From positions 28,534 through 92,533 of the IMG/VR virus record IMGVR_UViG_3300020048_000072: a stretch of DNA of 64,000 nucleotides; one strand, written 5' to 3'. The DNA is from a virus. Made by a program: the position numbers and the translations under genes. This document shows positions 9,742-37,000 of this stretch, one piece after another. Numbering within the stretch: position 1 is the stretch's first letter; each line of letters begins with the position of its first letter. The notes under the pieces are model-generated. The model was not told the DNA's origin. It saw only the letters and a list, made by a program, of their open reading frames with translations, and did no database searches.

Positions 9742-9742
9742 T

Positions 9743-18793: not shown

Positions 18794-21700
18794 TTAATTA
18801 GTATAACTCTTTGAACAAGTGAACTTACCTCTGAATAATGTTATGATACTTCCATTATTTAATGTGGCTTGAACATCATAATCATAGGTTCCTTGTGGAA
18901 TATTTGTATCAGATGATGTTAGTTGTAATGATATTTGTTGCATACCAGTAGCAGATATAACTACACATTCCTTATTTATTGAAGTTCCATAGATACCTAT
19001 TATTACTGTAGCATCTGTTAAATCCATCCATTGATCGGTAACATCTCCTGTAAATAGTATATTCCTATTATCGACAGTAAGATAATCGTCGCCTTGTATA
19101 ACACTTAATGTTGTACCATCTGAATTAAGTGGTGAAATTATATTTATTGTGGATGAACTTAATTTACTATTCATTAGGTCTACGGCGGTAGCAAATTCAT
19201 CAATTCCCGTTAGGATATTTTGAGTGTCATCAATAACCGTATCTATCTTGGTATCTAACGTAGACAAACCGGATACATCCGCTTTGAAAGCATTAGCGCG
19301 AGTTCCGTCAGTAAAGTAAGCATAATTGGCTGCTGCGGAAGCACCGCCGGTCAACGCGTTTGAGTCAACTTGATTTGCTACGGTAAACACAAACTGATCG
19401 GTCTTGGTTTTAATCGCAGCAATATCGCTGTTGGCAGGTGCGGTGTAACTCGCCGCGAGCATCGCATTGTTGGTGCCCCGCATGTCCGTGTTCACAGTCG
19501 TGGTATCGACCAGGGAGACGCGACTGACGTGCCCTGAAGCGTTGATCCCTAGCGAGGCGAAATTACTGGGGAACGCCTGGGAGAGCGAATAGCCGGATTT
19601 GTCGTTGTTGGTCCCGACAGTTACTGGCGAGGTAACGCTGGCCACACTGCCGACTACATTGCCAAGCACACTGCCGACACTACCGCTGACGTTACCGCCG
19701 ACATTGCCGGTGACGTTACCTACAGCCCCGGTGACTGAGCCGACACTACCGGTCAGGTTGCCTGTAATGTTTGCGGTTTGATTTCCCAAACCCGTTGTCG
19801 GCGTTAAGGAATAACCTGTCTTATCGACAATGACTTGATCGGTTGTTGCATCAAACGTAGACAAACCGGATACATCAGCTTTGAAAGCATTAGCGCGAGT
19901 CCCATCGGTGAAATAAGTATAGATGGTTGCCGCATAATCTCCGCCAGTCCATGCCGCATCCCCGCGATCCCGAATCGCCTCTTGCGAGTCCGTGACGTTG
20001 TTGTAATTGTTTGCAGCGGTTGTTACGTTAACTTCGGCAAGCGTGGGAGCATCCGAAGTTTTACCCATGATAACTGCGAGCCAATTACGAATAAGCGTAA
20101 TCCCCGCGAACTTTGAAGAAAGCGTTTGAATATCCGCATTCGTGTCCGCAATCCCCGCCCCATACGATCCAGCCCGCGACTTATCCAAATCGCCCGCCAA
20201 CGCATTCCGCAGCACCTTGACCGAATAGTCCCGCCCATTCGGCGGAATCACGCACCACGGCATATCCAGCGTAATCACCTTTGTTGCCGGATCGAATCCG
20301 ACAATGAATCGCGTTTGTCGATCAACGTCGCCTTCCTCGCCAATCGTGATCGCCTGACCGAAACAAACGCTTGTCGCACCTGCATCTAGCGTTGCAGTTT
20401 GCGTTGTAGCCGTCACGATCTGGCCCTCGAACAGCACGTCGGCCATTTGGATGTCGCGGACGAATCGAGCCAGCGAACCGTTGGGAACCGTGCCGGTGAT
20501 GATGCCGCGAACGATTTCATCAGGGGTGTAATACGGCGGGACTATTACTTGGTCGGTTGCCGAGTCAAACGTAGACAAACCGGATACATCCGCTTTGAAA
20601 TCATCAGGACCGCTAACTCCAACACCATTAACTTCAGCGACATTTACACTAATTCGCTCCATGATAAGCCAAGTGTACAGATTATCCCCTATTTGTCCAA
20701 CCTCCATAGAAGTTGCCAGTCCTGTAGTATTGACGACTTGATCTGGTTGCAATGCGACACTATCAATAGTTGGATCAAAAGTAGACAAGCCAGATACATC
20801 GGCTTTCAGGTCGTTGGGTCCAGCTACTGTGGTTCCACCAACCTTCGTCACGTTGACCGCTTGATCCGCTGCAAGCCCATATCCTGTCTTGTCGTCGTTA
20901 GTTCCAACCGTGACTTTGCCACTGCTTATCGTCAAAACTGAGCCGATTCGCGAGAGTAGCGTCGTCACTCCAGAACTATCAGCAACCGTTGTTAATGTCC
21001 GAACCGCAACACTCCATACCGCATCGAATGCACCAGCAGCGAATTTGGCAGAAGTAAATGCCCCTGCGGCAATTGATGTGGCGGTAATAACACCAGCGTT
21101 GATAAAGCCAACAGTGACGGCAGATGTAACACTGTTTACACTTCCAGCGACGTTACCCAAAACGCTACCGACGCTGCCTGTTACATTGCCTCCAACGTTA
21201 CCCGTTACTGACCCTACGGCACCTGTTACTGACCCTACGGCACCCGTGACGCTTCCGACGGAACCAGAAAGATTGCCGGTGATGTTTGCGGTTTGATTTC
21301 CCAAACCCGTTATTGCTGTTAGGGAATAACCTGTCTTATCAATAAGTTCCAGAGAATCTGCTGTCCATTGATAAACGGAGCCATCAAGTACCAGCATGGT
21401 ATCAAGTTTATTCGTTACCGCTTCGACATTAGGCAATTGATTTAATTGAGTTACGATATTGGTAATTTGGTCGTTAATTCCTGTAAGCGAGCTATCAAAA
21501 GTCGAAACGTCAGCCTTAAAGTCATCTGGGCCGTCAACGACAGTTCCATTAACATTATTTAATGAAACCGTTCCAGCTATTTCTGAAGCTGTAGTAACAA
21601 CGTTAATTGATACGGGGATACATGAAGTCTTAGTGGCAATCACCACGAAACTTGTATAGTTTGTTTCTGCTTGCGTTGGCGTATAGATGACGATGCCGTT

Positions 21701-21856
21701 CGTCGAATACGCAACCGTACCGGCTCCGTTAGCTTCCGACACGCCGATAGGCTTGACACGAACTGTGACACCAGAAGTTTGTACGGTTCCGTCTGCGATT
21801 AGAAGCACAGCCCCTATTGCGATTGGCTCGGGAGATTCGGCGTTTCGTGGATACAT
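18794..21856 (-). CDS. Fibre/appendage-like virion protein with repeats and a C-terminal BppU-like domain
   Basis: G(N/S)V(T/G)GSVGSV repeats, five KADVS linkers; C-terminal IQGDDY...GTYDYDVQAT...TLFRGKF. Confidence 0.62.
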   Translation of the reverse strand: MYPRNAESPEPIAIGAVLLIADGTVQTSGVTVRVKPIGVSEANGAGTVAYSTNGIVIYTPTQAETNYTSFVVIATKTSCIPVSINVVTTASEIAGTVSLNNVNGTVVDGPDDFKADVSTFDSSLTGINDQITNIVTQLNQLPNVEAVTNKLDTMLVLDGSVYQWTADSLELIDKTGYSLTAITGLGNQTANITGNLSGSVGSVTGAVGSVTGAVGSVTGNVGGNVTGSVGSVLGNVAGSVNSVTSAVTVGFINAGVITATSIAAGAFTSAKFAAGAFDAVWSVAVRTLTTVADSSGVTTLLSRIGSVLTISSGKVTVGTNDDKTGYGLAADQAVNVTKVGGTTVAGPNDLKADVSGLSTFDPTIDSVALQPDQVVNTTGLATSMEVGQIGDNLYTWLIMERISVNVAEVNGVGVSGPDDFKADVSGLSTFDSATDQVIVPPYYTPDEIVRGIITGTVPNGSLARFVRDIQMADVLFEGQIVTATTQTATLDAGATSVCFGQAITIGEEGDVDRQTRFIVGFDPATKVITLDMPWCVIPPNGRDYSVKVLRNALAGDLDKSRAGSYGAGIADTNADIQTLSSKFAGITLIRNWLAVIMGKTSDAPTLAEVNVTTAANNYNNVTDSQEAIRDRGDAAWTGGDYAATIYTYFTDGTRANAFKADVSGLSTFDATTDQVIVDKTGYSLTPTTGLGNQTANITGNLTGSVGSVTGAVGNVTGNVGGNVSGSVGSVLGNVVGSVASVTSPVTVGTNNDKSGYSLSQAFPSNFASLGINASGHVSRVSLVDTTTVNTDMRGTNNAMLAASYTAPANSDIAAIKTKTDQFVFTVANQVDSNALTGGASAAANYAYFTDGTRANAFKADVSGLSTLDTKIDTVIDDTQNILTGIDEFATAVDLMNSKLSSSTINIISPLNSDGTTLSVIQGDDYLTVDNRNILFTGDVTDQWMDLTDATVIIGIYGTSINKECVVISATGMQQISLQLTSSDTNIPQGTYDYDVQATLNNGSIITLFRGKFTCSKSYTN

Positions 21857-21872
21857 TATTAAATTTCTCCGT

Positions 21873-22895
21873 TTAAAGTATTTGTGTTTGTGGTCGCAGC
21901 CAATAAGGTTTGAATGGTGCCGATGGAGAGCTAAAGGCTACTCCGTTCCCGTCGCCTGTAGGAAGCGTTGCGGGGTTGGCGTACTTGGTCCCAAAGCCGG
22001 ACGACCACGGGTAAACTGAGATTCTTGGTGATGCGTCATGGCCAACTGCGATGTCCTCGCCGCTTGGAGAAAATTCCACGGCGCGACCAACGCCGGTCGG
22101 GAAGGTGCCGGGGTTAGCATACTTAGTTCCAAAGCCGGACGACCACGGGTAAACCGAGATTCTTGGCGATGAGTCATGGGCAACTGCAATGTCATTGCCG
22201 CTTGGAGAAAATCCTACGGCGCGAGCCGACCCAACTGGCAGGACGCTGGGGCTGGCGTATCTAGTTCCAAAGCCGGACGACCACGGATAAACCGAGATTC
22301 TTGGCGTTGAGGTTTGACCGACTGCAATATCCGCTCCACTTGGAGAAAACCGGGTCGCAGAACCGTCAATCCCAGGAAGCACGCCTGGGTTGGCGTATTT
22401 AGTTCCAAAGCCAGACGACCAAGGGTAGACTGAAATGCATGGCGACGAGTCATGGCCAACTGCGATGTCATTGCCGCTTGGACTAAACGAGACACTCCAC
22501 ACAAATGATGGCGGAACCGTGCCTGGGTTGGCGTATTTAGTTCCAAAGCCAGACGACCACGGGTATGCCGAGATTCTTGGTGCTACCCCGTGACCGACTG
22601 CAATATCCGCTCCACTTGGGGAGAACGCAACCGCGTATCCGTTACCAGTCGGCGGCGTGCCTGGGTTAGCGTATTTAGTTCCAAAGCCAGACGACCAAGG
22701 GTAGACTGAAATGTATGGCGACGAGCCATGCGCGGCTGCAATATCCGCTCCACTTGGGGAGAACGCGACCGCGTATCCAGTAGAAGCCGGTAGGGTGCTG
22801 GGATTGGCTAATTTGGTTCCGAAGCCGCTGCCGGATGTCCACGGGTAGACCGACACGAAAGGAGACGACTCATGGGCTACTGCGATGTGGCTCAT
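21873..22895 (-). CDS. Beta-propeller (WD40-like) repeat protein, probable virion component
   Basis: About seven near-identical 43-aa repeats, VAFSPSGxDIAVxHxxSPRISVYPWSSGFGTKYANP. Confidence 0.8.
   Translation of the reverse strand: MSHIAVAHESSPFVSVYPWTSGSGFGTKLANPSTLPASTGYAVAFSPSGADIAAAHGSSPYISVYPWSSGFGTKYANPGTPPTGNGYAVAFSPSGADIAVGHGVAPRISAYPWSSGFGTKYANPGTVPPSFVWSVSFSPSGNDIAVGHDSSPCISVYPWSSGFGTKYANPGVLPGIDGSATRFSPSGADIAVGQTSTPRISVYPWSSGFGTRYASPSVLPVGSARAVGFSPSGNDIAVAHDSSPRISVYPWSSGFGTKYANPGTFPTGVGRAVEFSPSGEDIAVGHDASPRISVYPWSSGFGTKYANPATLPTGDGNGVAFSSPSAPFKPYWLRPQTQIL
21930..22880 (-). repeat. 129-bp tandem coding repeat (propeller blades)
   Basis: ttccaaagcc(g/a)gacgacca recurs about every 129 nt. 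Confidence 0.85.
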
Positions 22896-23551
22896 TATCC
22901 ACTCATCTTAGATACTTCGTATCGCGTTTGAGCGTCCAGAATATACGTTGCTGCCTCCGCATTTACCATCGCAGCTAGCTCTGTTTGTAACTGGTCCAAT
23001 GCGGCCTTAGCAATCGACATTTCTCCGCGTTCTGCGCGGACACTTACTTTGGCCCGACGACAAAGTTGATTCTGGCAGATTTCCGCAACCTCTTCTTCTG
23101 TAAGATCCGAATTTCCGTAGACGGAGTTTCGATCAGCGTTGAGGTACGGTTTCAGTTTATCGGGCAACGGGCGAGATGGTTGCTTTGCCGCAAGAATACC
23201 TTCAAACCTTTTTGCGTTGTCTTCGTACTGCGAAACTTCTTCTTGCCGTATGACAATCTGATCCGCTACAGCCATTGCCTTAGTACGAGCGGAGTCGATA
23301 TCCGCACGACGAAGTAACACTTGGCGTTCTTCCGACGTAATGATATTCGCACCTACAAGATCAACAATAACTGCTTTAACCGCTTCAAACTCAATCGGAC
23401 GATTGCGTTTAATGTTTAGAAGACGATTCCCTTTGCGGGCCGCCTTCTTTACCCCGGCAGTCCCATTAGCCATGGCCGTGTCAATCTTTTCGTGAACATC
23501 ATACAACAATGCCCAATCTTCAATTTCTTCGGGACGGAAATCGCGCTTCAT
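22895..23551 (-). CDS. Hypothetical helical protein (in GC-rich island)
   Basis: Stop/start overlap with the propeller gene; AGGA ribosome-binding site. Confidence 0.7.
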   Translation of the reverse strand: MKRDFRPEEIEDWALLYDVHEKIDTAMANGTAGVKKAARKGNRLLNIKRNRPIEFEAVKAVIVDLVGANIITSEERQVLLRRADIDSARTKAMAVADQIVIRQEEVSQYEDNAKRFEGILAAKQPSRPLPDKLKPYLNADRNSVYGNSDLTEEEVAEICQNQLCRRAKVSVRAERGEMSIAKAALDQLQTELAAMVNAEAATYILDAQTRYEVSKMSG

Positions 23552-23606
23552 ATTTTAAGTCCTAATTTTGTTATTATGTTAGAATCCAATCAATAAGTTA
23601 TCATTT

Positions 23607-23617
23607 ATAATTACACA
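23607..23617 (-). promoter_or_regulatory. Candidate late promoter (fibre and membrane module)
   Basis: TGTGTAATTAT overlapping the stop codon of the GT2 gene. Confidence 0.4.
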
Positions 23618-24318
23618 ATATCCATAAGTCTATTAGAGTCTGAATCAAAAACCGCCTTTAATTCTAAAATAGACTCTTTAGAATCACCTTTATAGTTTTC
23701 GTACCAATTTGAATCTCCTGCTATTCCTGAACAATGATTAGATCTAGAAGAACCCCATCTATAAATATATTGAGGAGAGAAGTGTTTTAATGTATCTCCT
23801 GGTTGAGAAATTTTATTTAACATCCCCATAAAAATCTGATCATATTCTATATTTTTAATTCTTGGCCACTCACAAAGATCTAACATATATTTTGTTAAAG
23901 CTAAACTACCATAAAATCTACCTCTAGCATCTTCTATAATTGGAGGATTTAAATAGGCAGAAATAATCTTTGATGGTTTTGACCACATATTTTCTTCCAT
24001 GGTTTTTGCATGTGCTTCTAAATATTTAGGAAGATAAACATCATCGTCATCAAACATAGCCACAGCATCATATTCTATATTGTTTTTATTTGCAAAATCA
24101 ACCATCTCATTATATTTATTACTGAGACTTTCTGCTCTTTTACTTGTGGCTATGATATAAACATTTTCAAGATCGCAAACACACTCATTCAAAATACCAG
24201 AATCATCATAGACAATTAGACTCTTATCCTTATGTGTTTGAGATATAAAGCAAGCAAGCATATTTTCAAGTAAATCTTTTCTTCGTCCATAAGTAGGACA
24301 TAAACATAGTATATTCAT
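23611..24318 (-). CDS. Glycosyltransferase GT-A/GT2-like
   Basis: LCPTYGR, VYDDSG, MFDDDDVY. Confidence 0.85.
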   Translation of the reverse strand: MNILCLCPTYGRRKDLLENMLACFISQTHKDKSLIVYDDSGILNECVCDLENVYIIATSKRAESLSNKYNEMVDFANKNNIEYDAVAMFDDDDVYLPKYLEAHAKTMEENMWSKPSKIISAYLNPPIIEDARGRFYGSLALTKYMLDLCEWPRIKNIEYDQIFMGMLNKISQPGDTLKHFSPQYIYRWGSSRSNHCSGIAGDSNWYENYKGDSKESILELKAVFDSDSNRLMDIV

Positions 24319-24962
24319 TAATTTGCCTTTATGATTTTGTTTTTAATATTTGACAAGCTTTTTTGGTGGTTTGAACTATTAGACTCACCAAACGAATATT
24401 TCTTATCAACATACTTCATTGTTTCTTCTCTAGTATTGGGTATAGACCCACCATATATTTTTACGTCATTAGTAGTAAAACATCTAATTCCACTATTTAT
24501 AACTCTTTGTATTATATCTGTATCTTGATATCCACAAGGAAGTAAAGATTCGTCATATCCACCAACAGCATAAAAATGTTCTTTTATTATTGCTATTCTT
24601 CCGTATGTTCCATCATGCCAATCATTTGACCAAGTATGACCTATTCTTCCTGTTTCTAATAAATCATCAATCCACGAACAAAAATCTTCTCCTATAAAAT
24701 TATCAGCATCAAGATTTACAAGAATATCTCCAGTTCCAAGTTTATGAGATATATTATACAGTTTAGAGAAGTGGATTTGATCAACAGAAATTCTATGTAT
24801 CTTTACTCTATTATCATCCGTTTTAAAAGAAGAAAATTCATCATCACTATCTACGTCAACTATAATCCATTCGCAATCATCTCTCATTCTTTCTAAATTA
24901 ATAGGAAAAACTTCTTTAAATTGGTGAAATCTATTCTTTATCCATGTGCAGAAAGATATCAT
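24318..24962 (-). CDS. Glycosyltransferase GT-A with GT7-like C-terminal motif
   Basis: NLDADN; FYAVGGYDESLLPCGYQDTD. Confidence 0.82.
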   Translation of the reverse strand: MISFCTWIKNRFHQFKEVFPINLERMRDDCEWIIVDVDSDDEFSSFKTDDNRVKIHRISVDQIHFSKLYNISHKLGTGDILVNLDADNFIGEDFCSWIDDLLETGRIGHTWSNDWHDGTYGRIAIIKEHFYAVGGYDESLLPCGYQDTDIIQRVINSGIRCFTTNDVKIYGGSIPNTREETMKYVDKKYSFGESNSSNHQKSLSNIKNKIIKAN

Positions 24963-25459
24963 AATTTAATAGCTAAAGAATCTACTGTTCTTAAAGATTT
25001 CCAAACATGATTAACTGCTATTGTAACATCTTGCAATTGTGGATATCCAGTTCCATAATCATGTATAGCAATTATTCCATCGTCTTTTATAACTCTTTCC
25101 GCAATCCTTATATCTCTTATACATGCACTTAATTTATGGTCGCCATCAATAAAAACCATATCAAACGTTTTTGGAATAAGAAATTTTTCTATCTCCTCAA
25201 TCCTTCCTAATAGTGGAATTATCGGTAAATCACAAATGTTATCTAAAAAAATAGGAAGAGTATTTATTTTGGGATGTGGCTCAGTTGTAGAACTATCATG
25301 TGGATCAATAGAAAAAATAACCTTAGCTTCAGACATTGCTACTGTAGACCTTCCACAATAACTACCTATTTCTAAAACTATTTTTCCTTTAGATAGTCTT
25401 TTAAGTTCTTCGCCCTCACATATTGAAAGCCATCCATTTATAGATTGCCAATCTATCAT
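24959..25459 (-). CDS. Class I SAM-dependent methyltransferase (Methyltransf_24-like)
   Basis: VLEIGSYCGRST, FDMVFIDGDH, IAIHDY. Confidence 0.88.
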   Translation of the reverse strand: MIDWQSINGWLSICEGEELKRLSKGKIVLEIGSYCGRSTVAMSEAKVIFSIDPHDSSTTEPHPKINTLPIFLDNICDLPIIPLLGRIEEIEKFLIPKTFDMVFIDGDHKLSACIRDIRIAERVIKDDGIIAIHDYGTGYPQLQDVTIAVNHVWKSLRTVDSLAIKL

Positions 25460-27684
25460 CTTTTACATCCTTCTTTTCCACACTTAGCACCAGGTTCACA
25501 TCCATTTTTCTTACATCTGCTCTTTTCGTTTTCTTCTGCTCTACGAATAGATTCTGTAACTAAACCTGGATAAGGATCAAGCCAATTAACATGGAAAACA
25601 ATTCCGCTCATTAATGACTTCCATCCAATACCTAATTTTTCTGTCATAGTTAATTTATGAACAGGTTCGGTTGATTCTAGAACCTTTTGTTCTGCTGCCT
25701 TAGACCAACCCCATGCGACCGCAGATTCATTGATCCATCCAACTATCTCATCAAAATGTTCTTTACAGCCTTCTACTTGCCATTCATCCATTTGAGCCAT
25801 TCTCTTATTACAAGAACAATTTGCTCCAGAATTAATTCCAACAGAAGATAAAATTGCTTTTAATTCTGTTCCAGGCCCATAACCACGCGGCCAAGGTTCT
25901 ATTTCCTTTTCTGGTCTTGGTTCTGGTTCTCTAGCTAATAGAGTCATACCATAATATTCTTGCCAGTGTTTAGCTATAAACCACTCTTTATTTGTGGCAA
26001 GGAAGTTTTTCATTGCTGGCCACAATCCAGGTTTAGTTTGATCAAATTCTGCCTTTTCACCAAAGGATTGTGTTCCCCTAATAATAATATACTTACTAAC
26101 TTTACTAGCGTGTTTGTTTAAAACATTAGTTAGATATTCAGCAGAGTTTTCCCTATCTATGACAAGAAGTTCGGTAGGACCAATATCAACCTTCATTGGA
26201 TCTACTTCAGCATCTTTATGATATGTAATATAGTTATCTATTTTTCTTGAATCTTTTGCCTTTTGTTGATCTACAGCCTTATGAGTTTCTTCAATTAGTT
26301 TAGACTCTTGAGTTTGATATACATTAAGTGTTTTTGGAAAACCTGACGCCAAAGCAACTTCCCAATCTGCTCTCTTAACGAACGCAGTTATATTATTTAC
26401 TTTTGATGCTATATTTCTTACTGTTTCACAGTGTACATTAAGGTCTTTTGATTCTCTTGCAACATCAGCAAACAAAGCATCCAAAGGTTGTGGTCCAGAT
26501 TGTTTTACTGGTCTTGAAAGATTAATAGGATAATTAACTGGATCAGCAACTAATTTATCCCAGTTTTCTTTTGAGAATAATCCACCGCCAACAAAGTGAA
26601 ACCAAATCCTTTCTAGTAATGTCTTTTCTCCATCACCATAATTAAACGACGGGTTTTCTAATTCTTTTGCCCATAAAACATAGTTACGGACCTTTGCTGA
26701 TAATGGAATTGGATATGGGGCACCACCAGCACGACCAAATCTATGATTCCACTTTAAGAAAGGTAAACAAACGGCCTTCCTTCCAGCTTGTCTATATTTT
26801 GTGTGGATGTTCATTTCTTCTCCACCGAATCCGCTACATTCTTTTGCGAATCCAAGCCAAGAGTCTTTCCTAGACGCAAATAAACCCATTCCCATTCCTG
26901 GGATTTCAAATGTTTCTTCTGAGTCTATTTTACCTAATTCAAAACATCCAAACTTAACTAATTCTCTATCGTGTCCTGCCCATTCTAATTTTGATGTTAC
27001 TACATGCCCACACGGAAAAATTACATCACCCCCTTTACTTGGTTCAAATTCTTTTAGAGTCATAATATCGAAATACTTAACAGACTTAAATTGCTTTCTT
27101 GCACCATCTTTATACTCATCATTAAATTCTTCGTTTGATGTCATAAAGATTGTTCCTTTTGGTGTTGACCAAGCAGAACCCCAAGTTCCCCACATACCTC
27201 CTCTAAATTGATCAGTGAAGTGTGTTGATACAATATCTAAACTATCATAAAGCATCGGACCATGAACTAAGTCTTTACATTCTGGATTTTTCTCAAACCA
27301 TGTTGATAGACGAAGTAATGTATTTGGTTTTAACATAACGTGACAATCCATAACTACTACAAACTCTCCGTCTGCATAATTAAAAATTACGTCTCTAGGA
27401 AGTGTTGTTCCTGCAAAACCAGCCATATCTACATATTTAATATTTTTGGTTCTACAGCCTACTTTATCAACACCGCCTTTATTCAAAAAATCCTGAACTA
27501 ATTTTCTGTGTTCACTACCAACAGGAGAAGTATCTACTATTACAATCTGAACATCTGAAGGTTGTTCCCAATCATTATGCAAAAATACAGACTGTATTGT
27601 TGCCCACAAGCCACAAAAATCATCACAGTGAGCTGCTCCTACTGTAATTTTAGGCTTATTTGTTTCAATATTTTCTTTCTTCAT
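25456..27684 (-). CDS. Multidomain glycosyltransferase: ppGalNAc-transferase-like GT-A, degenerate methyltransferase-like domain, Cys-containing C-terminal domain
   Basis: VVMDCHV (DxH); PGMGMGLFASRK...GFGGEE...HRFGR...PY; LLVIDRE...GLWPAM; GPGTEL...CSC. Confidence 0.75.
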   Translation of the reverse strand: MKKENIETNKPKITVGAAHCDDFCGLWATIQSVFLHNDWEQPSDVQIVIVDTSPVGSEHRKLVQDFLNKGGVDKVGCRTKNIKYVDMAGFAGTTLPRDVIFNYADGEFVVVMDCHVMLKPNTLLRLSTWFEKNPECKDLVHGPMLYDSLDIVSTHFTDQFRGGMWGTWGSAWSTPKGTIFMTSNEEFNDEYKDGARKQFKSVKYFDIMTLKEFEPSKGGDVIFPCGHVVTSKLEWAGHDRELVKFGCFELGKIDSEETFEIPGMGMGLFASRKDSWLGFAKECSGFGGEEMNIHTKYRQAGRKAVCLPFLKWNHRFGRAGGAPYPIPLSAKVRNYVLWAKELENPSFNYGDGEKTLLERIWFHFVGGGLFSKENWDKLVADPVNYPINLSRPVKQSGPQPLDALFADVARESKDLNVHCETVRNIASKVNNITAFVKRADWEVALASGFPKTLNVYQTQESKLIEETHKAVDQQKAKDSRKIDNYITYHKDAEVDPMKVDIGPTELLVIDRENSAEYLTNVLNKHASKVSKYIIIRGTQSFGEKAEFDQTKPGLWPAMKNFLATNKEWFIAKHWQEYYGMTLLAREPEPRPEKEIEPWPRGYGPGTELKAILSSVGINSGANCSCNKRMAQMDEWQVEGCKEHFDEIVGWINESAVAWGWSKAAEQKVLESTEPVHKLTMTEKLGIGWKSLMSGIVFHVNWLDPYPGLVTESIRRAEENEKSRCKKNGCEPGAKCGKEGCKR

Positions 27685-27737
27685 CTTTGTCCTTTCAAAA
27701 AGAGTTATAATCTAACTATCTATATTATAGATTTAAA

Positions 27738-28328
27738 CTATGATGTAGTTGTTGGTTCTTCTTCACATGTTATACAGCTACATTCTGGAGTACATGGTTC
27801 GCCAGCCATATCTGTATATCCTGGAGTACAATTAAAATTAAATGCATTATTAAATACTACATATGCTCCTTCTTCACATCTCCAAACTACAAGCCCAGTA
27901 GGAACTGCACATGGCTCACACGATGTTGTTGTAGAGGTTGTTGTCGTGGTTGTCGTTGTAGTGGTGGTTGTCGTTGTAGTGGTTGTCGTAGTTGTGGTGG
28001 TTGTCGTAGTTGTGGTGGTTGTCGTAGTTGTGGTTGTTGTTGGAACCTCAATACAAGGAACTTGAATTATTTCACAAGTTTCTCTTCCTGAATATGCCAC
28101 ATTACTACAATAACAAGGAGATGAACAGGTAGAATAAACTATATCCCAACTAGCGCCATTCCATTTTCTCTTACATGGCTCATCACACGGTCCTGTTGTT
28201 GTTGTAACTTCAACTGTAGTTGGGCAACCATAACATTGTGGACAATCTCCAGAACAAGGTCTATTATCCGGTGTTGTGGTTGATACATCTGGAGTTGTAG
28301 TAGGAACAGAAGATGAAACGCACCCCAT
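27738..28328 (-). CDS. Cys/Thr-rich mucin-like polypeptide; probably the frameshifted C terminus of the 28399-32589 protein
   Basis: 35 consecutive Thr; same TTTP(D/E) and W...C...C repeat style as the upstream gene; frame open back to about 28412. Confidence 0.7.
   Translation of the reverse strand: MGCVSSSVPTTTPDVSTTTPDNRPCSGDCPQCYGCPTTVEVTTTTGPCDEPCKRKWNGASWDIVYSTCSSPCYCSNVAYSGRETCEIIQVPCIEVPTTTTTTTTTTTTTTTTTTTTTTTTTTTTTTTTTTTSTTTSCEPCAVPTGLVVWRCEEGAYVVFNNAFNFNCTPGYTDMAGEPCTPECSCITCEEEPTTTS
27936..28040 (-). repeat. Poly-Thr (ACN)35 tract including about three 18-bp units
   Basis: 105 nt of Thr codons; ggttgtcgtagttgtggt repeated. Confidence 0.95.
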
Positions 28329-28398
28329 AGTTAAAGTTGATCCACAGTTAGTACAAGGGGCTGTAGGAACTAATGAATAACAGTTTGGAATATTAGTA

Positions 28399-31300
28399 TT
28401 AACAAGTATTCTCTAATATCCTCCATAATAAATCTGGTCCACAAAACCATTTAGAATACCCTCCGCATGAACATGGTTCGTCTTCGTCTATTGGTGGGCA
28501 TAAACATCCAACAGCGCCAACTTCACATGAATCAATAGGAGGAAAACCAACACAAGTACATCCTTCTGGACAAGTATTACTAAGAGTAATTGTTTGTCCA
28601 TCTTCTGTGTATGTATAAGTACATGTATTAGGAGCTAGTGGATTTCCTGGATCGGCAGTACTTGTAGTAGCACAATCACAAGTCGTACTAGTAGTTGTTG
28701 TATTACTACAGTTTATTGGTTGTGTTTCTCCATTAGTACAACTTGTGTATGTACAATCGCCATTAGCATTGCCACAAAAACTTGGATAAGCACATCTACA
28801 TTCTACTGTCGTTGTAGCAGTATCTTCTGTTATAATTCTGCATCCACAAAAATCTTCTGGAGTTGTGGTCGTTGGAGCTTCTACAGTTGTTGTTGATGTG
28901 GTAGAAGTTGCACAATTATCGGTAACTAAAGTCCAATACTCATTTAATCCATCAATTGTATAAGTAAACTTACATTCATTTTGACATAAAGAGAAATCTT
29001 CTGGAGTTGTAGTAGTTGGAGCTGTAACACAACATTCGCTTATATTAACTAAACATAGTTGATTACCAGTTCCTTCTGACCATAATATTTCTACAGGACC
29101 GTTTACAGAAGAAACTAAAGATGTACTTCCAGGAACTAAAGATGCATGTCTATGTGATCTATTTACTATATTAATTTTAGCAACACATTTGCCAGAAATA
29201 CTAGCCGCCATTATCCCAGCTTTTGTATTACCTTCTAGATCATACCCGCCATTAACATCATTGGTCAAAATAGCGAAACAATCTTTTCCGTCTGTAGTTG
29301 CCCCACTTAGTATTTTATTTACAGGATTATCTGTTAAGTATTGATTTTCGTTTGTGTACTGAGTTAAAGCCTCTCCACAAATCTTTAATACTTCCCCTTT
29401 TAATCTTGGACCACAAGAATCATTTCTAATTTTGATTATATTTTCTTTAGGTACTGCCCAAACTTTTCTGTCTTCATCCCACCTAAAATCAATAGGACCA
29501 GATTTCCAATTATCATACTCGTTTAAATAATTTGTTTTAAATTCTTCCGTTTTATAATCATCATCATCTAGTTTTGCAGGACAGGGTTTTTCATCAATAT
29601 CAAAACCCCAGCCAGACATAACAACTGGACCTTTTAATCCAACTCCTCTATATAATAGGTCTTCTGGTGTTGTAGTTGTAGAAGTTGTGGTTGATCCATC
29701 AGGTGTTGTTGTAGTATCTAAATCAGAAAAAATATCATTAGATATTTGTTCTGTTGGCATTACTCCTTTGAATACAACAGATATATCATGCCCTTTCTTA
29801 AAAGGAAAAAGTGCTGTTGAATCAACGCCATATACATTAATTATACCATTTGAATTAGTTGTTGTAGTAGTATCTAATAATCTACTTTCTTCAATAATAT
29901 ATTTAGGTATTGTTACTCCATTCTCATTAACAACGAATGGTCTAAATATACCATCTAAACTGATTCCGCCTTTATTATAAAATTCTTCTGCTATAAATTG
30001 CCCAACCTGATAATAAGGCATAGCTGCTACTGAGCTAAATTTTTTATTATCATTATCTCTTGTTATAGATTGTCCTATTAACATAGCAGAAGATGAATTA
30101 GGCCTTTCCCTTCTTGGTCTATTTTTTTCTCTTTCTTTTACAGATTGTGCAACCGCTACTATATTTTGAGCATAATTACCATATAAATCTCTTATAGTTT
30201 TATTTTGATCTCTTCGTATACTATATATTTTCTTAAATCTTTCAACTTGATAATTGAGCATCTTTCCTGTTTTTACTGCCCACTTACCATATCTATAACT
30301 TGTTGTTACTCCATCACTCCCAATAGATATATTCATTCCTGTTATATATGGTCCACCACCAGGAATTTGTGCTCCTGGACCAAAGTTAGTAACCCCTGGA
30401 AGACTTAATGCACCATTTGTTCCTTCAATAGAACTTAATAAAATATCTTCCACTAATCTTGTTCCCACAAGATTCATTGCATCAAATCCGCCAAAGTTCC
30501 AGGGATTTAAATCTTGATTATATTCAACTTCTACTTTTCCTGTTACCCCAGCAGCAAACCATGGTCCATATGTTTTTAATGTATTTCTTAATGGAACTAC
30601 TGCAAGGTCTGGATAAACAGGAGTTGCTTTCATTCCATATAATACGTTATCTGAACCAACATTAGCCCAGAACACCTTTGTCACATTAATTTTTAGATCT
30701 TTCTCATTACCATTAATGTCTCTTGGCTGTCTACCTAAAACTTTGAGCCATGCGTCTCTCCACATAAACTCTCTACTCTTCATATCCTCAAATCTATATA
30801 TTGGTCCTGGAAGAGTTATAACAACCCTAGGATCTTCTCCTAAAAACCCATTACCAAAATAAATTTTATTATCAACTTGACATTTTATATAAACGTTTGT
30901 CTTAACTGATACTTCGTCATCCAAATATACATAATCGTAATCAAGAATATAATCTATACCTCTAGATAAATTGCTTAAATCTAGAGTTTGAAAATTATCA
31001 AATTTAACATATGGAATTATCTTTCCCTCTTCATTTTGAACAAAGGAAAAGTATTCTGGTAGTAATCCAGAAGAAATAGCAGCGGCCATTTCTGAATCTT
31101 CTAAATATCCAGATTCTGTTGTTATTAAAGATGTTTCTTTTAATCTAAAATCATCTAGATCCACCTTAACTAAAACATTTGGTATTGATACAGAATATCT
31201 AACACCAAAAAAATCAGTAGCATATCTACGAATAAATTCATAAACCTTATTTACATATTGTCTTGTTTCTTCATTAAAAGAATAAGTTTTATGAATTGCT

Positions 31301-32589
31301 CCTGCAACGTGTGGAGGAACTTGATTTAGTGGTCTTGTTCTAAACTTTGCTTGAAGATCATCTTTTATTTCTGCTTGTATTTGTAGTAAAGAAGCTTTGC
31401 CTTCATGTATACTACCAACATAATCATTTAAAGCTATATAACTTTCCCAAGCGTCTTGATTAATTGAGGCTGCTTTAAGTTCACCTATAGTCATAGTATA
31501 GGTAGCATATCCAATTTCTCTAGCACTAACAGTAATTACTTCATCATCAGTATCAAAACCATCCTCTAATCTTTTACCGAAGATAAGGTTTCCGTTTAAA
31601 TCTTCTCCCCAGAATCTTGCAATGGTTCCATTATCAGTCCATTCTGCCGCAGAAAGAAGTGAAACTTCTTCATTACCTTCATCATTAGTTATAGTCACAG
31701 ATGTATAAGCTCTTGAAGGAAGAGCTAAGTCTCTAAAATATGTTAAATCCATAGGTGCCCCAATCAAAAATTTGGAGCTTGGATTATATGTATATTCTAC
31801 ACCGGCAGATTTATTTATCGCACCATTTACAGAAGAAATATAATCATCTACTGCAGTTGGACTAGGAACAAAATCTCTACTTATTGTTCTGAATTTTATT
31901 ATCCAACCTAATAATCCGCCATCAATTAATTGAACTATATATTCTTTGTTTGCAATATCGCAGCAGTCTTGAATAAAATCTAATAAATTAATAACATTAC
32001 CACCCAACCTATAGTCTTCAGTTATAACTGGTATTTCTGTCAGATCTAGATAATAAGATATTCCACGAAAGACGATTGGTTTTTGTGAAATGGAATTTGG
32101 AATATCTCCAATCATGTATGTAACAAGACCGTTTAGAATCATATCTGATCTCATTCCAAGATCATTAACCAACGAAGATCCATACTCAATATTTTCATAA
32201 AGAGAGAATATATTATATACGTTTTGAACTTCTGTTACTTCTTCTGAGTATCCATTAATTATTAATTGTACACCATCAAGAAATCTTCGTGGATCTACTA
32301 TTGTGGCAGAAATTAATGTATTTCCACCTTCTCCCTGATCCTCAGATAAATTATCTAGTATACCTGCGAAATAAAACGCATTTTCTTCCTCTTCATCATA
32401 AGGATCGTCTGGATCACTTAAAAATATAAATTCTACTGGTCTTCCTACTAATGGAGGATTAAAAGAATCTCCGTTTCTTGTATCTTCTACTAAACTAACA
32501 GTTAAGCTTGTTGGTTGTTCACCCCAACCCATTTCTGCGTTTATTCCACGGATAGAAGCCCCGAGAAATCTTTGTTGTCCAAATGCCAT
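28399..32589 (-). CDS. Large tail-tip/hub-like virion protein with Cys/Thr-rich C terminus
   Basis: Second gene after the tape measure gene; GPIDFRWDEDRKVW; poly-Thr runs between Cys-rich modules. Confidence 0.65.
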   Translation of the reverse strand: MAFGQQRFLGASIRGINAEMGWGEQPTSLTVSLVEDTRNGDSFNPPLVGRPVEFIFLSDPDDPYDEEEENAFYFAGILDNLSEDQGEGGNTLISATIVDPRRFLDGVQLIINGYSEEVTEVQNVYNIFSLYENIEYGSSLVNDLGMRSDMILNGLVTYMIGDIPNSISQKPIVFRGISYYLDLTEIPVITEDYRLGGNVINLLDFIQDCCDIANKEYIVQLIDGGLLGWIIKFRTISRDFVPSPTAVDDYISSVNGAINKSAGVEYTYNPSSKFLIGAPMDLTYFRDLALPSRAYTSVTITNDEGNEEVSLLSAAEWTDNGTIARFWGEDLNGNLIFGKRLEDGFDTDDEVITVSAREIGYATYTMTIGELKAASINQDAWESYIALNDYVGSIHEGKASLLQIQAEIKDDLQAKFRTRPLNQVPPHVAGAIHKTYSFNEETRQYVNKVYEFIRRYATDFFGVRYSVSIPNVLVKVDLDDFRLKETSLITTESGYLEDSEMAAAISSGLLPEYFSFVQNEEGKIIPYVKFDNFQTLDLSNLSRGIDYILDYDYVYLDDEVSVKTNVYIKCQVDNKIYFGNGFLGEDPRVVITLPGPIYRFEDMKSREFMWRDAWLKVLGRQPRDINGNEKDLKINVTKVFWANVGSDNVLYGMKATPVYPDLAVVPLRNTLKTYGPWFAAGVTGKVEVEYNQDLNPWNFGGFDAMNLVGTRLVEDILLSSIEGTNGALSLPGVTNFGPGAQIPGGGPYITGMNISIGSDGVTTSYRYGKWAVKTGKMLNYQVERFKKIYSIRRDQNKTIRDLYGNYAQNIVAVAQSVKEREKNRPRRERPNSSSAMLIGQSITRDNDNKKFSSVAAMPYYQVGQFIAEEFYNKGGISLDGIFRPFVVNENGVTIPKYIIEESRLLDTTTTTNSNGIINVYGVDSTALFPFKKGHDISVVFKGVMPTEQISNDIFSDLDTTTTPDGSTTTSTTTTPEDLLYRGVGLKGPVVMSGWGFDIDEKPCPAKLDDDDYKTEEFKTNYLNEYDNWKSGPIDFRWDEDRKVWAVPKENIIKIRNDSCGPRLKGEVLKICGEALTQYTNENQYLTDNPVNKILSGATTDGKDCFAILTNDVNGGYDLEGNTKAGIMAASISGKCVAKINIVNRSHRHASLVPGSTSLVSSVNGPVEILWSEGTGNQLCLVNISECCVTAPTTTTPEDFSLCQNECKFTYTIDGLNEYWTLVTDNCATSTTSTTTVEAPTTTTPEDFCGCRIITEDTATTTVECRCAYPSFCGNANGDCTYTSCTNGETQPINCSNTTTTSTTCDCATTSTADPGNPLAPNTCTYTYTEDGQTITLSNTCPEGCTCVGFPPIDSCEVGAVGCLCPPIDEDEPCSCGGYSKWFCGPDLLWRILENTC

Positions 32590-32597
32590 TTATTTTC

Positions 32598-34070
32598 CTA
32601 AACTTCGTATGTCCAATTTATAGAATAAGATCCTCTTCCTGTGTAGGGATCATAATTTTCGTTTGGTTGTCCACTAAATGATTGATATGCATTATCAGCA
32701 ACCATAGGATTTAATCCAGAGACTAAATTACTTATCAAATTAAATGGAAACTTAAAATTATTACCAATATTAGTATAGTCCATTGCTGGAGTCTTTACAA
32801 ATTCAATAGTTAGATTTTTTTGTCTAGCTTCTGAAGTTTCTAAAGATTGAAGAACTGGACCAGCAGCCCTCCCTAAAACAAATACACTAGCAAACGATTG
32901 TCCTGGTTTAATATAGGAAACATTTATTACTTCTGATAAAACCCCACTAATTAGTCCACTTGGCCTATTATCATATTCAAACGAATAATTTAATGTTCCT
33001 GCTGCTGGGTTTTTACCAATACTTTCTTGAAGAGGAATAGAATGTAGTATTCCGTTTGATATTTCGTTTAAGAAGTTTTGTGATCTTATATACGGTAGGT
33101 TCCTTCCTGATAAATAACTAAACTTATCAAGAGCATTAGACATTCTATCCATACCAGAAATAGTAACGCTAGGATCTCCAACATCAAGACCCCTAATATT
33201 TCCTTGAATAGATACTGTCTTTATTCCCTGATTAATTCCTTTAGATAGGGATAATTCATAATTCTCTATTGCTCTACCACTAGACAATAACCAGTTTTCG
33301 GTGATAGAATACTCTCCACCCAACTCATCTATATTTTCTGTTTTTGCATAATCATATCCTTGATAATAACCAGGAATGTTATGTATTCCAGAATAAATTA
33401 TTGATGGATCTAATCCTCTTTTACCAAGAACCCAAGATCTTGCATTTTGCCAAGGTTCTCTTCCGCTTAATAAAAATCCACTAGTATCAAATAATCTTTT
33501 ACCATTGGCAGATAATGAGTGAGTTACTCTATAAGTTAATTGATATATTCCACTACCAGACGCATCTTCTCTTTCTTCTGTTGGTTCTATTGACCATGAT
33601 TCTGAGGCATCTTTGATAAGATCGGTATTAGCTTCATCTAGTGGAAATATTTGATTTGCTGTAAGTCCAATAGAATAATCGCAAGTATTATACCATCTAT
33701 CAGCAGGAAAATTAATAGACTGAATTTCTGGATAACATGTTAGTGGATTTGTTCCATCTCCAGAATATATTTCTAATTTCTTTCCATTATTTTCTTTACT
33801 AAATAAAGACTGAATTGCATTTTGTTTTCTTATAATAGATCCGAGCTTAGATTGATCATCAATATTTTCATCTACAGGATATCCACTAAGGCTAGTAAAA
33901 AATACACCGCTGCTATTGGGAGATCCCATAGAATCGATAAATTTCCCCTCTAGAGCGATTTCGTAGTTTTTACTTAGTATAGTTCCATCTGGACTCTTAT
34001 TATAAGAAGATGAAATATTTACTAGTGGAGCAGGGATCAACCTTTTTTCATTAAACCTTATCGAAGTCAT
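32598..34070 (-). CDS. Tail-tip/distal tail-like virion protein
   Basis: Immediately after the tape measure gene; beta-rich, ends YSINWTYEV. Confidence 0.55.
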   Translation of the reverse strand: MTSIRFNEKRLIPAPLVNISSSYNKSPDGTILSKNYEIALEGKFIDSMGSPNSSGVFFTSLSGYPVDENIDDQSKLGSIIRKQNAIQSLFSKENNGKKLEIYSGDGTNPLTCYPEIQSINFPADRWYNTCDYSIGLTANQIFPLDEANTDLIKDASESWSIEPTEEREDASGSGIYQLTYRVTHSLSANGKRLFDTSGFLLSGREPWQNARSWVLGKRGLDPSIIYSGIHNIPGYYQGYDYAKTENIDELGGEYSITENWLLSSGRAIENYELSLSKGINQGIKTVSIQGNIRGLDVGDPSVTISGMDRMSNALDKFSYLSGRNLPYIRSQNFLNEISNGILHSIPLQESIGKNPAAGTLNYSFEYDNRPSGLISGVLSEVINVSYIKPGQSFASVFVLGRAAGPVLQSLETSEARQKNLTIEFVKTPAMDYTNIGNNFKFPFNLISNLVSGLNPMVADNAYQSFSGQPNENYDPYTGRGSYSINWTYEV

Positions 34071-34074
34071 AATA

Positions 34075-37000
34075 TTATACCATTGGTCCTACTTCTGGGA
34101 ATTTTTGTTCTATGAATCTATTTAACTGTGCGTCTGTTGTAGAAACTATCATTTTTTGAATTGAAGGAACCATTTCAGCTAATACTTGACCACCATTCAA
34201 TATAACTTCTACTCTATGATTTCCTGTTAAAGTAATCGTACTAGGAATAGTTGATATGGCTTTAGCTAATGCTGTAGCTGTTGAATTAAATTGAGTAATA
34301 GACGCATTTAAGGCATTAATAGCCGTAGTATCTATTTGTTCAGGTTGTCCTATAGCCGCAGCACCACTAGGAATCATAGGACTCCTTCTTCTAGTATTTA
34401 TAGTTTGTGCTTGTTGAGCCTGTTGATTTATACTATTTCTTTGTTGGGTTGGTATTATTGACCTTTCTTTAATAAAATCATTTCTACCATTTGGCATTCT
34501 TTTTATATTAGAAGAGGTTAATTTAGTCTGCGCTTTGTTTTTAGGATTAATTTTATCTTGTATAAGTTTTGTTGTTCCTGGAAAAAATTTACTAGAACTA
34601 GAATTGTTTCTTATAATAGAATCAAATATAGTAGCAAAAGTCTCTCTTCTTCCACCATCTCCATCTTGTAATAAATATTTAAATCTATCTCTGTCTTTTT
34701 TACTAAGAGAAGAAGAATCTTTCATGTATGCAGCTCTAAATTCTTTACTATCAGATATAGTTCCTTTACCATAATCAAAAGCGTGTCCAGCCTCATGATT
34801 GAATACATTTGCTCCAGAATCATTTCTCATAAAAATTTCTTTTGATGAGCTTCTATACAAACCTTTTATATCCTCAAATTTTGTTCCGGCTTGTCCCCTT
34901 GGACTTTGAGAAGATAAAGAAGGATCAATATCAGTTACTTTATCAGCAGACTTAACAGATACTCCATAATCATTTATTGTTTTAGCTAATTCTTTTGGAA
35001 AATTAAATTTCGTTGCAGCATCTAAAAATGATAGTTGTGATTTTGCTTTACCCTCTGGAACAACGGCAGGTTTTGGAACAACGGCAGGTTTTGGAACAAC
35101 ATCCGGTTTTGGCATAGATGGAAGAATGTCTTTAATATCTGGTTTAACATCAGATCTTATTGGCGTAGGCTTAAAATCATCTTTTATTGGCTGTACTTTT
35201 GGTAATGTAGCTAATCTATCTCTTCTTTTTTGTGCTATTTGTTCTAAAGATAATCCTTTATTTTCATTTGCAACCTTTTCTCTTATAGCGGCTAATTTAT
35301 CAGCATTTGCGGCCCTAAATTCTTCTGCTTTTTTATCTGCAATTTGCCTTGCTTTAAAATCAGCATCTAAATACTGCAGACTATTTAATTCAGAACCACT
35401 ATCCATTCCAAATCTTTTTGAGTCTTTATCGTTTAATTTAAACTTTGGACCATTTAATAGACCCTCTCTTTGAATAGCCTCTCTTTCTCTAAAAGAAGAA
35501 ATTAGTTTTTGTCTTGCCTCTGCAATTGCAGTATTTTTATCTTTTCTATTTGTTCTTAAATTACCTCTTTGCGCACCTCCAGACTCTAATGGATTTCCAC
35601 CATCTAATAGTCTTTGATATTCTTTATTAGCTTCTATAAAAGGTTTAGCTCTTTCCGTTTCTAATGGATCTTTACTAAAACCTTCTGCATCTCTATTTCT
35701 ATTTTTTAGAATATCATCATCACTATATTTCCAGAACTCATAATTTTCTGAGTTTTTAATAAAATCTTCTAATCCATCAAAAGAACGCTTTTCAGGTATT
35801 CTTGGAAGCCATGACGAGTTTCCTTTTTTGTCTACAGGAAATAGATTTTGTCCTTTTATTCCGGTTAGTGATTCAATAGTATTGAAATTATTAAGATCTT
35901 TTATATTTTTAGGAAAATCTTCAGTATAAGTTTCTTGTAATGTTTTAAATATAGATCCAAGAAAACCACCACCTTCATTGTTAAATGGTGCTCTATAAGA
36001 CATATCTTTATCTTGAGATAAATTAAATACATCTTCTATTTTTTTTCTTTTACCATTAAACCCACCATCTTTAAATCCTTTTAAACTTCCTTTATTTAGT
36101 TTGTCTAAAAATCCTACTCCATATTTGTTTACTGCTGATGATTGTACAACATATTCACCATCAGCCAACATTGCTGGTATAGTATCCTTTTTACTAGATC
36201 CATATCCAACACGACCACCAGTACTTCTACCAATAGGGGTGGGAGGAGGAGGGTTATTTGCAGGATTAATTGAATCTAATTTAAGTATTAATACGCGTAT
36301 TGATTCATCCAACTTACCAAATTCTACGTTTTGTGGAAGTCCTTTAATTATTGGTTCTAGTAAAGATAAATTACTAATAATATTAGCTAAATTATCATCA
36401 CCCCCAACTGAGGATGCTAAATTTGATCTATCTATTTCAGTTAATCCAAGATTATCCCGAAGATTCTTTATTATGGTTGGTATTAATTTACTAAAATCAT
36501 TACTAGTTGTAGAAGCAACAATGTCAGAAATTTGTTTATTAAACTGTTCTTTTGATAATTGTGCTCCAGACCTACCTATACTAGTATATCCCTCGCTTAT
36601 AGCATTTTCTATATCTTTAATTATAGAAGCAAATCCTCCGCCTCTTAATTCTGATCCCAAAAAATCTTTTGTTTCTTTATTAACATTAAGATTAGATATT
36701 ATTCCAGATAATATTTCTGAGCCACTTTTTCCAGATACTCCATCTCCTATTACCTTATCAATAGAACCTCTTAATTCTTTTTGTAAAGAACCTAGTCCAG
36801 ATAATTGATTATTAATTTTATTTTGTTCTGTTACAAGATTTTTAATACTATCAAATGAATTAAATACTGTTTGTGGATCAACGCCACTTAAGAAAGATAT
36901 TTTTTCACCAGCTTGCTTCTGTGTATTAAGAGCATTTATATCACCTTTAACAGACAGAGACCTTGTTTCTCTTTCTCTAGTAAATATTTCAGATATTTGT

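Follow-up and report, generated by a model that had tools for sequence, protein, structure and literature searches.

The DNA considered here (hereafter the window) is a stretch of 64,000 nucleotides, positions 28,534 to 92,533 of IMG/VR record IMGVR_UViG_3300020048_000072, comprising the last 64 kb of a 92.5-kb viral contig with a CheckV completeness of 61%; our subject is a block of minus-strand genes within it, in which a 742-amino acid (aa) protein resembling the polypeptide N-acetylgalactosamine (GalNAc) transferases of glycosyltransferase family GT27 adjoins a tail protein rich in Cys and Thr. The G+C content of the window is about 32%, and its minus strand is a tailed-phage late operon with genes for terminase, portal, a capsid-like protein, and a 2527-aa tape measure protein (PhageMin_Tail, E 3e-23). 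After the tape measure gene come, in order, a 490-aa gene, a 1396-aa gene (28399-32589), a 196-aa open reading frame (ORF; 27738-28328), and four enzyme genes with overlapping stop and start codons, encoding the 742-aa protein (25456-27684), a 166-aa methyltransferase (24959-25459), a 214-aa GT7-like glycosyltransferase (GT; 24318-24962), and a 235-aa GT2 (23611-24318); a protein with a seven-repeat beta-propeller and a 1020-aa fibre-like protein follow. Because this cassette lies between the gene in tail-tip position and the fibre-like genes, the enzymes are inside the tail module. An original prediction, drawn from the letters of this locus, had proposed that the four enzymes form a mucin-type O-glycosylation system acting on a poly-Thr tail protein, and the overlapping arrangement of the three smaller genes behind the 742-aa gene is just as it described.

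The AlphaFold (AF2) model of the 742-aa protein, built from a 44-sequence alignment, has a mean predicted local distance difference test score (pLDDT) of 89.5, and residues 8-386 form a GT-A domain (assigned to residues 1-395, 26500-27684, minus strand, from the fold, its structure matches, and its invariant residues) whose best matches are all polypeptide GalNAc-transferases. Foldseek placed GT27 proteins in all of the top 29 entries (E 2.7e-10), and VIA-align scored these 29 entries (GalNAc-T2, T1, T3, T4, T10, and T12) at Z 19.3-23.4 and all others at Z 18.0 or below; the best match was GalNAc-T2 (6nqt_F; Z 23.4 over 261 residues, root-mean-square deviation 3.2) and the first entry outside GT27 was the chondroitin polymerase K4CP (Z 18.0). 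A search independent of Foldseek, run against 48,161 representative chains, returned GalNAc-T1 (8v9q) at Z 22.0, Toxoplasma TgGalNAc-T3 at Z 21.3, and K4CP at Z 17.6. When the adjacent 235-aa GT2 was used as a control fold, GalNAc-T2 appeared only at rank 33 (Z 16.0) and bacterial GT2 enzymes matched best; the preference for GT27 is therefore specific to the 742-aa protein, not general to GT-A models. The fold thus sides with the original prediction, GT27 being the best match at Z 22-23 against 18 or less for all others, rather than an ordinary sugar-acceptor GT2.

The motifs named in the prediction are also present: the protein has a DCH motif (D113-C114-H115, 27340-27348) and the block PGMGMGLFASRK...GFGGEE...CLPFLKWNHRFGR...PY, and further key residues are E289-E290 (26815-26820) and H314 (26743-26745). 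Residues D113, H115, E289, E290, W312, H314, and F316 are invariant in the alignment of 44 relatives, and a motif tally over 80 bacterial-genome relatives found DxH in 76/76 (DCH in 37, DSH in 37, DAH in 2) and WxH in 79/79. When the family profile is aligned with GalNAc-T10, DCH falls on DSH, FGGEE on WGGEQ, WNH on VGH, and the PFEIPxxGxGLF block on PFESPVMAGGLF, so that by sequence alignment the family carries the combination by which GT27 is recognised, namely DxH, a distal His, and a Gal/GalNAc-T (WGGEN-like) motif. The generic GT2 profile PF00535 matches 42 of the 44 relatives, and PF02709 is precomputed on one relative; the GT60 profile PF11397 was absent for residues 1-395 at E up to 1 (only PF00535 was listed) and matched 0/44 relatives at 1e-3.

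The family is large and anonymous. Relatives of the 742-aa protein number 740 in a 90%-clustered protein set, 551 in IMG/VR, and 406 among GTDB species genomes, and an exhaustive search at E no greater than 1e-30 gave 1,568 representatives at 50% identity; the closest (P0002 and P0003) are 80% and 78% identical, and none of the relatives bears an informative name. GenBank phages (INPHARED) yielded neither DNA resembling this region nor, by tblastn at 1e-5, any counterpart of the 742-aa protein, and an isolated phage with the three-domain form of the enzyme described below was not found. None of the four cassette enzymes has a membrane segment (the maximum 19-residue Kyte-Doolittle window of the 742-aa protein is 1.07), and from its sequence we expect the 742-aa protein to be soluble and cytoplasmic.

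The 1396-aa protein is encoded at the Tal position, its gene following that of the tape measure and the 490-aa gene in Dit position, and we call it the tail tip by gene order alone; it has no Pfam or PHROG match, and Atlas gave only weak leads to Sipho_Gp37 and Prophage_tail clusters. Residues 1 to about 1040 are a core common to phages that lack the cassette, and homologues of this core mostly measure 1000-1130 aa, contain 0.5% Cys, and lack Thr runs. Composition and homology distinguish a Cys-rich Thr-linker extension (residues ~1041-1396; 28402-29469, minus strand): the last 356 residues contain 8.7% Cys and 15.4% Thr with TTT and TTTT runs, and are homologous to the proteins encoded upstream of the enzyme in loci L002, L032, and L042. 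The 196-aa ORF, proposed here on composition as the main acceptor, has 30.6% Thr and 10.2% Cys and belongs to no Pfam or PHROG family. The remaining structural proteins of the window average 0.5% Cys and 6.4% Thr, and no other window ORF of at least 120 aa combines a run of four or more Thr with high Cys. The claim that the tail-tip gene ends in Cys-rich modules with Thr runs therefore stood, and the 35 consecutive Thr codons are indeed at 27936-28040, but this run is outside the 1396-aa ORF, in the 196-aa ORF, which lies in the +1 frame past the tail-tip stop codon. The run is built of an 18-nucleotide (nt) repeat unit with mixed ACA, ACC, ACG, and ACT codons, and its length is therefore probably unstable; ACC and ACG make up 43% of Thr codons inside it versus 6% in the rest of the tail-tip gene.

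At the junction (28399-28412) the TAA stop of the 1396-aa ORF (28399-28401) overlaps by 13 nt a +1 frame that is open from 28412; the break is a single base (+1), and the pattern of Cys modules runs on through 28 codons before the ATG at 28328. In locus L002 a single 658-aa frame is colinear both with residues 1050-1387 of the 1396-aa ORF and with residues 10-195 of the 196-aa ORF, which is 49% identical to the C-terminus of that upstream protein (E 7e-58); both ORFs therefore derive from a single ancestral gene, and by this comparison of sequences the 196-aa ORF corresponds to the C-terminus of the mucin-like module. In L059 and L081 a separate gene after the tail-tip core naturally encodes the Cys/Thr protein, and a split therefore need not be lethal. 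The break may be a mistake of assembly, a genuine split, or a frameshift, although programmed +1 frameshifting at TGT-TAA-T seems unlikely from inspection, as no slippery re-pairing is evident; a search of IMG/VR with the exact 23-mer of the junction found nothing, and no near-identical contig. The dedicated mucin-like acceptor of the original prediction accordingly survives as an enzyme-linked Cys/Thr module in which a frame break divides the poly-Thr part from the tail-tip ORF.

The linkage of enzyme and module was examined in 80 IMG/VR loci anchored on the enzyme, taking as upstream the same-strand ORF that ends just before it and as poly-Thr any ORF with at least 9 Thr in 12 residues. The immediately upstream ORF is poly-Thr in 53/76 loci, compared with 18/1,867 for other ORFs of at least 150 aa in the same loci, and the pairing is present in 27 of the 36 clusters into which the 80 enzymes fall at 50% identity, so that the predicted adjacency to Thr-rich genes is borne out. 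The upstream poly-Thr proteins are 600-1300 aa long and nearly always Cys-rich (6-13% Cys); across 63 upstream proteins there are 468 Thr linkers (median length 8, maximum 111 residues), and the modules between them are about 57 residues long with about 8 Cys. With low-complexity filtering these proteins fall into several unrelated BLAST clusters, and the tail-tip core of the window occurs in only 3-4 of the loci; the enzyme is therefore linked to the Cys/Thr module rather than to any single tail protein. The same pairing is found with full-length relatives in bacterial assemblies, mostly contigs of Planctomycetota metagenome-assembled genomes (MAGs). The full-length relatives on GTDB contigs (L082-L109) are mostly from high-G+C Planctomycetota (Pirellulales, Gemmataceae, and Planctomycetaceae), and since the phage has a G+C content of 32%, its host is probably different from them.

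Anchoring on the tail-tip core instead gives the complementary result. Among 80 IMG/VR loci selected with residues 1-1000 of the 1396-aa protein and taken with 10-kb flanks (about 75 of them with at least 5 kb downstream), the enzyme was found in 0/80 and a Cys-rich poly-Thr ORF in 0/80, whereas the enzyme is present in each of the four loci with both core and module (the window, L004, L059, and L081); enzyme and acceptor have therefore been gained and lost together. The reverse test took 80 IMG/VR loci chosen solely for at least 15 consecutive ACN codons. Enzyme-family members were found in only 4 of the 68 such loci that have a poly-Thr ORF, in each case on the same strand as the tract and close by. 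Viral proteins with poly-Thr are thus common and for the most part independent of this enzyme; poly-Thr by itself is therefore no predictor of the enzyme, so that most tracts would be served by other enzymes or left unmodified.

Composition separates the two kinds of tract. Viral poly-Thr proteins sampled at random are mostly Cys-poor (0-3% Cys), as are most of the poly-Thr ORFs near relatives that consist of the GT domain only (L183, L203, L206, and many bacterial examples); by contrast, the proteins that accompany the three-domain enzyme are specifically the Cys-rich ones. This pairing raises the speculation that the extra domains recognise the Cys modules. Pro is found at +3 after 71% of Thr linkers, versus 39% in random Cys-poor poly-Thr ORFs, and GalNAc-transferases have a known preference for Pro; we give this excess little weight because the sequences are related and Pro is common after linkers. 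In three bacterial loci small Cys-free poly-Thr ORFs (L154:4075-5699, three in tandem; L103:4777-5148; and L158:4098-4902; all on the plus strand) lie 0.3-2 kb upstream of GT-only relatives, the genomes being an Acidobacteriaceae MAG, Chthoniobacter flavus Ellin428, and an Oricola MAG. Such bacterial pairs of GT-only enzyme and poly-Thr ORF could be cellular versions of the system.

Three further parts of the 742-aa protein distinguish the family. A beta insertion of about 80 residues within the catalytic domain (about residues 155-235) is family-specific and carries the motif RGGMWGTWG, of which MWGTWG is invariant. Residues 396-589 (25918-26499, minus strand) have, by structure matches, a methyltransferase fold, which in the model takes up residues 401-589 (O-methyltransferase 8c9v, Z 16.3 over 163 residues; MeT1 6g7d, Z 14.3), and RMNT_CmcI (PF04989) matches 7/44 relatives. 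The Gly-rich S-adenosylmethionine (SAM) loop is missing family-wide, the position reading FVKRADWE or EFSKRRES, and the clade of the window reads IDREN and RGT at the places of the IDTxH and HDT still found in distant members, thus losing IDxxH and HD. With both the loop and these motifs gone, the domain is probably not catalytic; by its sequence the middle of the protein is probably a dead methyltransferase. The helical C-terminal domain (residues 590-742; 25459-25917, minus strand) has, by its invariant columns, conserved C623, C625, and C640, as well as a GPGTELK...CxC...QMDxW motif, and no Pfam match at E up to 1. The Atlas structure leads for this domain, offered only as leads, are stand-alone phage proteins of about 170 aa (TM-score 0.52-0.60). 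A predicted complex of the 742-aa protein with the 196-aa ORF scored 0.00, the fold of the partner being uncertain.

Only one of the three smaller enzymes is a regular companion. A homologue of the 235-aa GT2 (PF00535, E 5e-7; minus strand) directly follows the big glycosyltransferase in 61/80 loci, which makes it the third core part of the cassette and an extending role plausible. The protein has an invariant DDD motif (D91-D92-D93), its AF2 model has a pLDDT of 96.2, its best structures are 6p61 (Z 19.9) and WrtF, SpsA, and RmlT (Z 18-19), and its profile matches heparosan synthase (E 3e-11) and SpsA; it is probably an extending enzyme. The 214-aa protein just exceeds the Pfam cut-offs of 23 bits for Glyco_transf_7C (score 23.7) and 27.3 bits for Glyco_tranf_2_2 (score 27.7), matches chondroitin synthase 3 at E 1.4e-4 and beta4GalT7 only at E 0.18, and has a counterpart in 0/80 related loci. 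The 166-aa protein (Methyltransf_24, E 1.6e-13; MeT1 6g7d, E 2.8e-5) is, going by its sequence, apparently an intact sugar O-methyltransferase-like enzyme, with homologues in 15-18/80 loci. Of the "two extenders and a cap" originally envisaged, the conserved GT2 is retained, and the other two proteins are lineage-specific accessories, decorations of this lineage for which the roles of "extender" and "cap" are guesses.

We regard the locus as best explained by a mobile, phage-encoded protein O-glycosylation cassette within the tail operon, and put at roughly 65% the probability that the Thr linkers are O-glycosylated in the cytoplasm, by a GT27-like initiating enzyme and GT2 extension, to give a glycan-coated stalk on the tail tip. 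Under this proposal, i) the acceptor would consist of short Cys-rich units with Thr linkers between them, added at the C-terminal end of the tail tip and continuing in the 196-aa ORF; ii) the GT-A domain would put the first sugar on Thr hydroxyls, most likely with a uridine diphosphate (UDP)-sugar and Mn2+ and, by analogy, with retention of configuration (alpha linkage); iii) the dead methyltransferase-fold domain and the Cys-containing C-terminal domain would replace the lectin domain of the animal enzymes and may dock on the Cys modules; iv) the conserved small GT2, of inverting type, would add a second sugar, and in this phage the GT7-like transferase and the O-methyltransferase might elaborate the glycan further; and v) the tail tip would thereby gain a stiff stalk, coated with glycans and resistant to proteases. 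The fold, the conserved catalytic residues, the linkage of the genes, and the shared gain and loss of module and enzyme are results of the analysis; Thr as the acceptor, the identity of the sugar, the sequence in which the enzymes act, and the biological role are inferred.

Several observations weigh against this proposal. In no member of the family has a glycan, a donor sugar, or a modified residue been seen; at the sequence level the resemblance to GT27 is marginal (E 0.002 for the family profile against GalNAc-T10, and noise only, with no GT27 chain, when the single 742-aa sequence was searched against PDB by phmmer); fold similarity does not fix the acceptor, and soluble glycosyltransferases can also use lipid-linked or soluble glycans. 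The split of the acceptor ORF by the frame break means that the 35-Thr piece may be off the virion in this contig, or else that the assembly is wrong. The small share of poly-Thr loci with the enzyme in the reverse test counts on the same side, as does the Pfam GT2 score of the window protein, which at 20.4 bits is under the 23.3 cut-off. This low score, the frame break, and the lost motifs of the methyltransferase-fold domain would also suit a cassette that is decaying or already inactive in this contig, even if its relatives glycosylate, and yet every family-invariant catalytic residue is intact in the window protein, the five downstream frames are all open and translationally coupled, the Cys/Thr protein is naturally separate in L059 and L081, and a single-base metagenome assembly error is a simpler reading of the break; we consider decay very improbable.

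Two other readings accept active enzymes and move the target, and we think each of them unlikely, to about the same degree. Most GT-A and GT2 enzymes take sugar or lipid-linked acceptors, GT1, GT2, TylF, and epimerase genes form another sugar cluster, 11 kb long, elsewhere in the window, and most viral poly-Thr tracts lack this enzyme, all of which would fit four enzymes that synthesise or alter a glycan not carried by protein (a polysaccharide of the host envelope, a lipid-linked precursor, or a soluble glycan) and that adjoin a Thr-rich gene only because accessory genes gather at the end of the tail module, the Thr runs being plain flexible linkers. Such gathering sits poorly with same-strand adjacency in 27/36 diverged clusters and on bacterial MAG contigs and with the joint absence of enzyme and Cys/Thr module from 80/80 phages sharing the core, and a sugar acceptor with a fold closest specifically to the peptide-acceptor family GT27, unlike that of the neighbouring GT2. 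Alternatively the enzyme may glycosylate protein elsewhere than at the Thr runs, whether on the knot Cys (S-glycosylation, as by SunS), on Ser or Thr elsewhere in the modules, or on another virion protein. It is with Cys-rich poly-Thr proteins (6-13% Cys) that the three-domain enzyme pairs, the poly-Thr ORFs beside GT-only relatives and those of random viruses being mostly 0-3% Cys, and S-glycosyltransferases are GT2-type GT-A enzymes; SunS, however, matches the 742-aa protein only at Z 13.1 (rank 41) versus Z 22-23 for GT27, on which we rejected the S-glycosyltransferase reading, and Thr/Cys-rich tracts occur nowhere else in the window. Moreover, since GT-only relatives with the same DxH site adjoin Cys-free poly-Thr ORFs, Thr is the feature common to both kinds of pair.

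Among known systems GT27 is the nearest, represented by human GalNAc-T2 (6nqt/2ffu), mouse GalNAc-T1 (8v9q), and Toxoplasma GalNAc-T3 (8ui6); no other solved structures come as close in catalytic fold (Z 22-23.4 over about 260 residues), and the phage enzyme shares with it the DxH with distal His, the GGE(E/N) motif, the P-x-x-GG-LF block, and the pairing with Thr-rich mucin-like tracts, often followed by Pro. It differs in having only about 15% identity; no type II membrane anchor, signal anchor, or stem, with a cytoplasmic location; no ricin-type lectin domain, the dead methyltransferase fold and the Cys-containing helical domain standing in its place; and the extra beta insertion of about 80 residues with RGGMWGTWG. 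The GT60 enzymes (Dictyostelium Gnt1 and trypanosome OGNT; PF11397) are relatives of GT27 that start O-glycans on hydroxyproline or Thr; we know of no solved GT60 structure, and unlike them the GT domain of the 742-aa protein lacks a PF11397 match. In A064R-type proteins of chlorovirus PBCV-1, a single polypeptide joins GT-A and methyltransferase domains, acts on the virus's own structural glycoprotein, and bypasses the host secretory pathway; by description, these differ from the 742-aa protein in belonging to a eukaryotic virus, in making N-linked capsid glycans, and in having an active methyltransferase.

Viral structure matches to the 742-aa model include uncultured-phage proteins named "Glycosyltransferase, GlcNAc". 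Phage-encoded virion glycosylation exists in mycobacteriophages (Che8 and cluster F1), and the nearest published case is capsid glycosylation in the cluster F1 mycobacteriophages (PMC11256854; PMC12582341, citing Freeman et al. 2023). There, as proposed here, the phage supplies glycosyltransferases that act in the host cytoplasm on its own structural proteins; the glycans are carried by major capsid proteins (PMC11256854), without a poly-Thr/Cys-knot acceptor module, and have been measured, whereas those of the present system are a prediction. The Che8 glycosyltransferase is a weak structural match to the 742-aa model (BFVD rank 14, TM-score 0.18-0.31). A full-text literature search did not turn up any account of phages in which a GT27-like enzyme is paired with poly-Thr proteins.

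To our knowledge, mucin-type O-glycosylation has been regarded as something that eukaryotes invented in the Golgi, and glycosylated phage virions have been described only for a few mycobacteriophages. We wish to put forward, as a tentative idea that we think more probably wrong than right, that the DxH family, which occurs in both phages and bacteria and has no fewer than 1,568 clusters at 50% identity, is a prokaryotic sister or source of GT27 and GT60; that with the Cys-knot/poly-Thr module and the GT2 it makes up a portable "mucin cassette" grafted onto varied tail proteins; and that the dead methyltransferase and C-terminal domains dock on Cys knots, as a counterpart of the animal lectin, allowing dense, processive coating of Thr linkers of up to 111 residues. 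Should the cassette indeed glycosylate the tail tip as proposed, a large unnamed family in uncultured phages, Planctomycetota, and other bacteria would be making mucin-like glycoproteins in the cytoplasm; acceptor and enzymes would constitute one movable unit on the host-contact organelle of the phage; the origin of the GT27 and GT60 enzymes would become directly testable; glycoengineering would gain an initiating enzyme that is soluble, has no lectin domain, and naturally acts on poly-Thr; and host-range prediction from tail-tip proteins would have to consider glycan coats. Experiments are feasible because relatives have cultured carriers (Schlesneria sp. T3-172 and Chthoniobacter flavus Ellin428).

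Some features of the window outside the cassette deserve mention. Directly downstream, the region 18794-23551 (minus strand) has a G+C content of 47-49%, compared with about 32% elsewhere, and encodes the beta-propeller-like protein (340 aa, with seven near-identical repeats, SPSGxDIAVxH...ISVYPWSSGFGTKYANPG, and weak WD40/beta-propeller matches) and the 1020-aa fibre-like protein, which has GSVGSVTGAVG and FKADVSGLSTFD repeats. A scan of 21500-34200 for promoters and terminators gave counts not above those in shuffles. The second, larger sugar cluster spans 11 kb (403-11643) on the plus strand, opposite to the cassette, and encodes four transferases of GT1 type and one of GT2, together with one TylF-like O-methyltransferase and three NAD-dependent epimerases/dehydratases; the cluster may provide or assemble the tail-tip glycan, or serve another target. 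In the large terminase (57072-60311, minus strand; 1079 aa) the terminase matches are split into residues 71-196 and 651-1039, and the insert between the halves matches helicase and HNH-endonuclease PHROGs, an arrangement that fits an intein or homing element.

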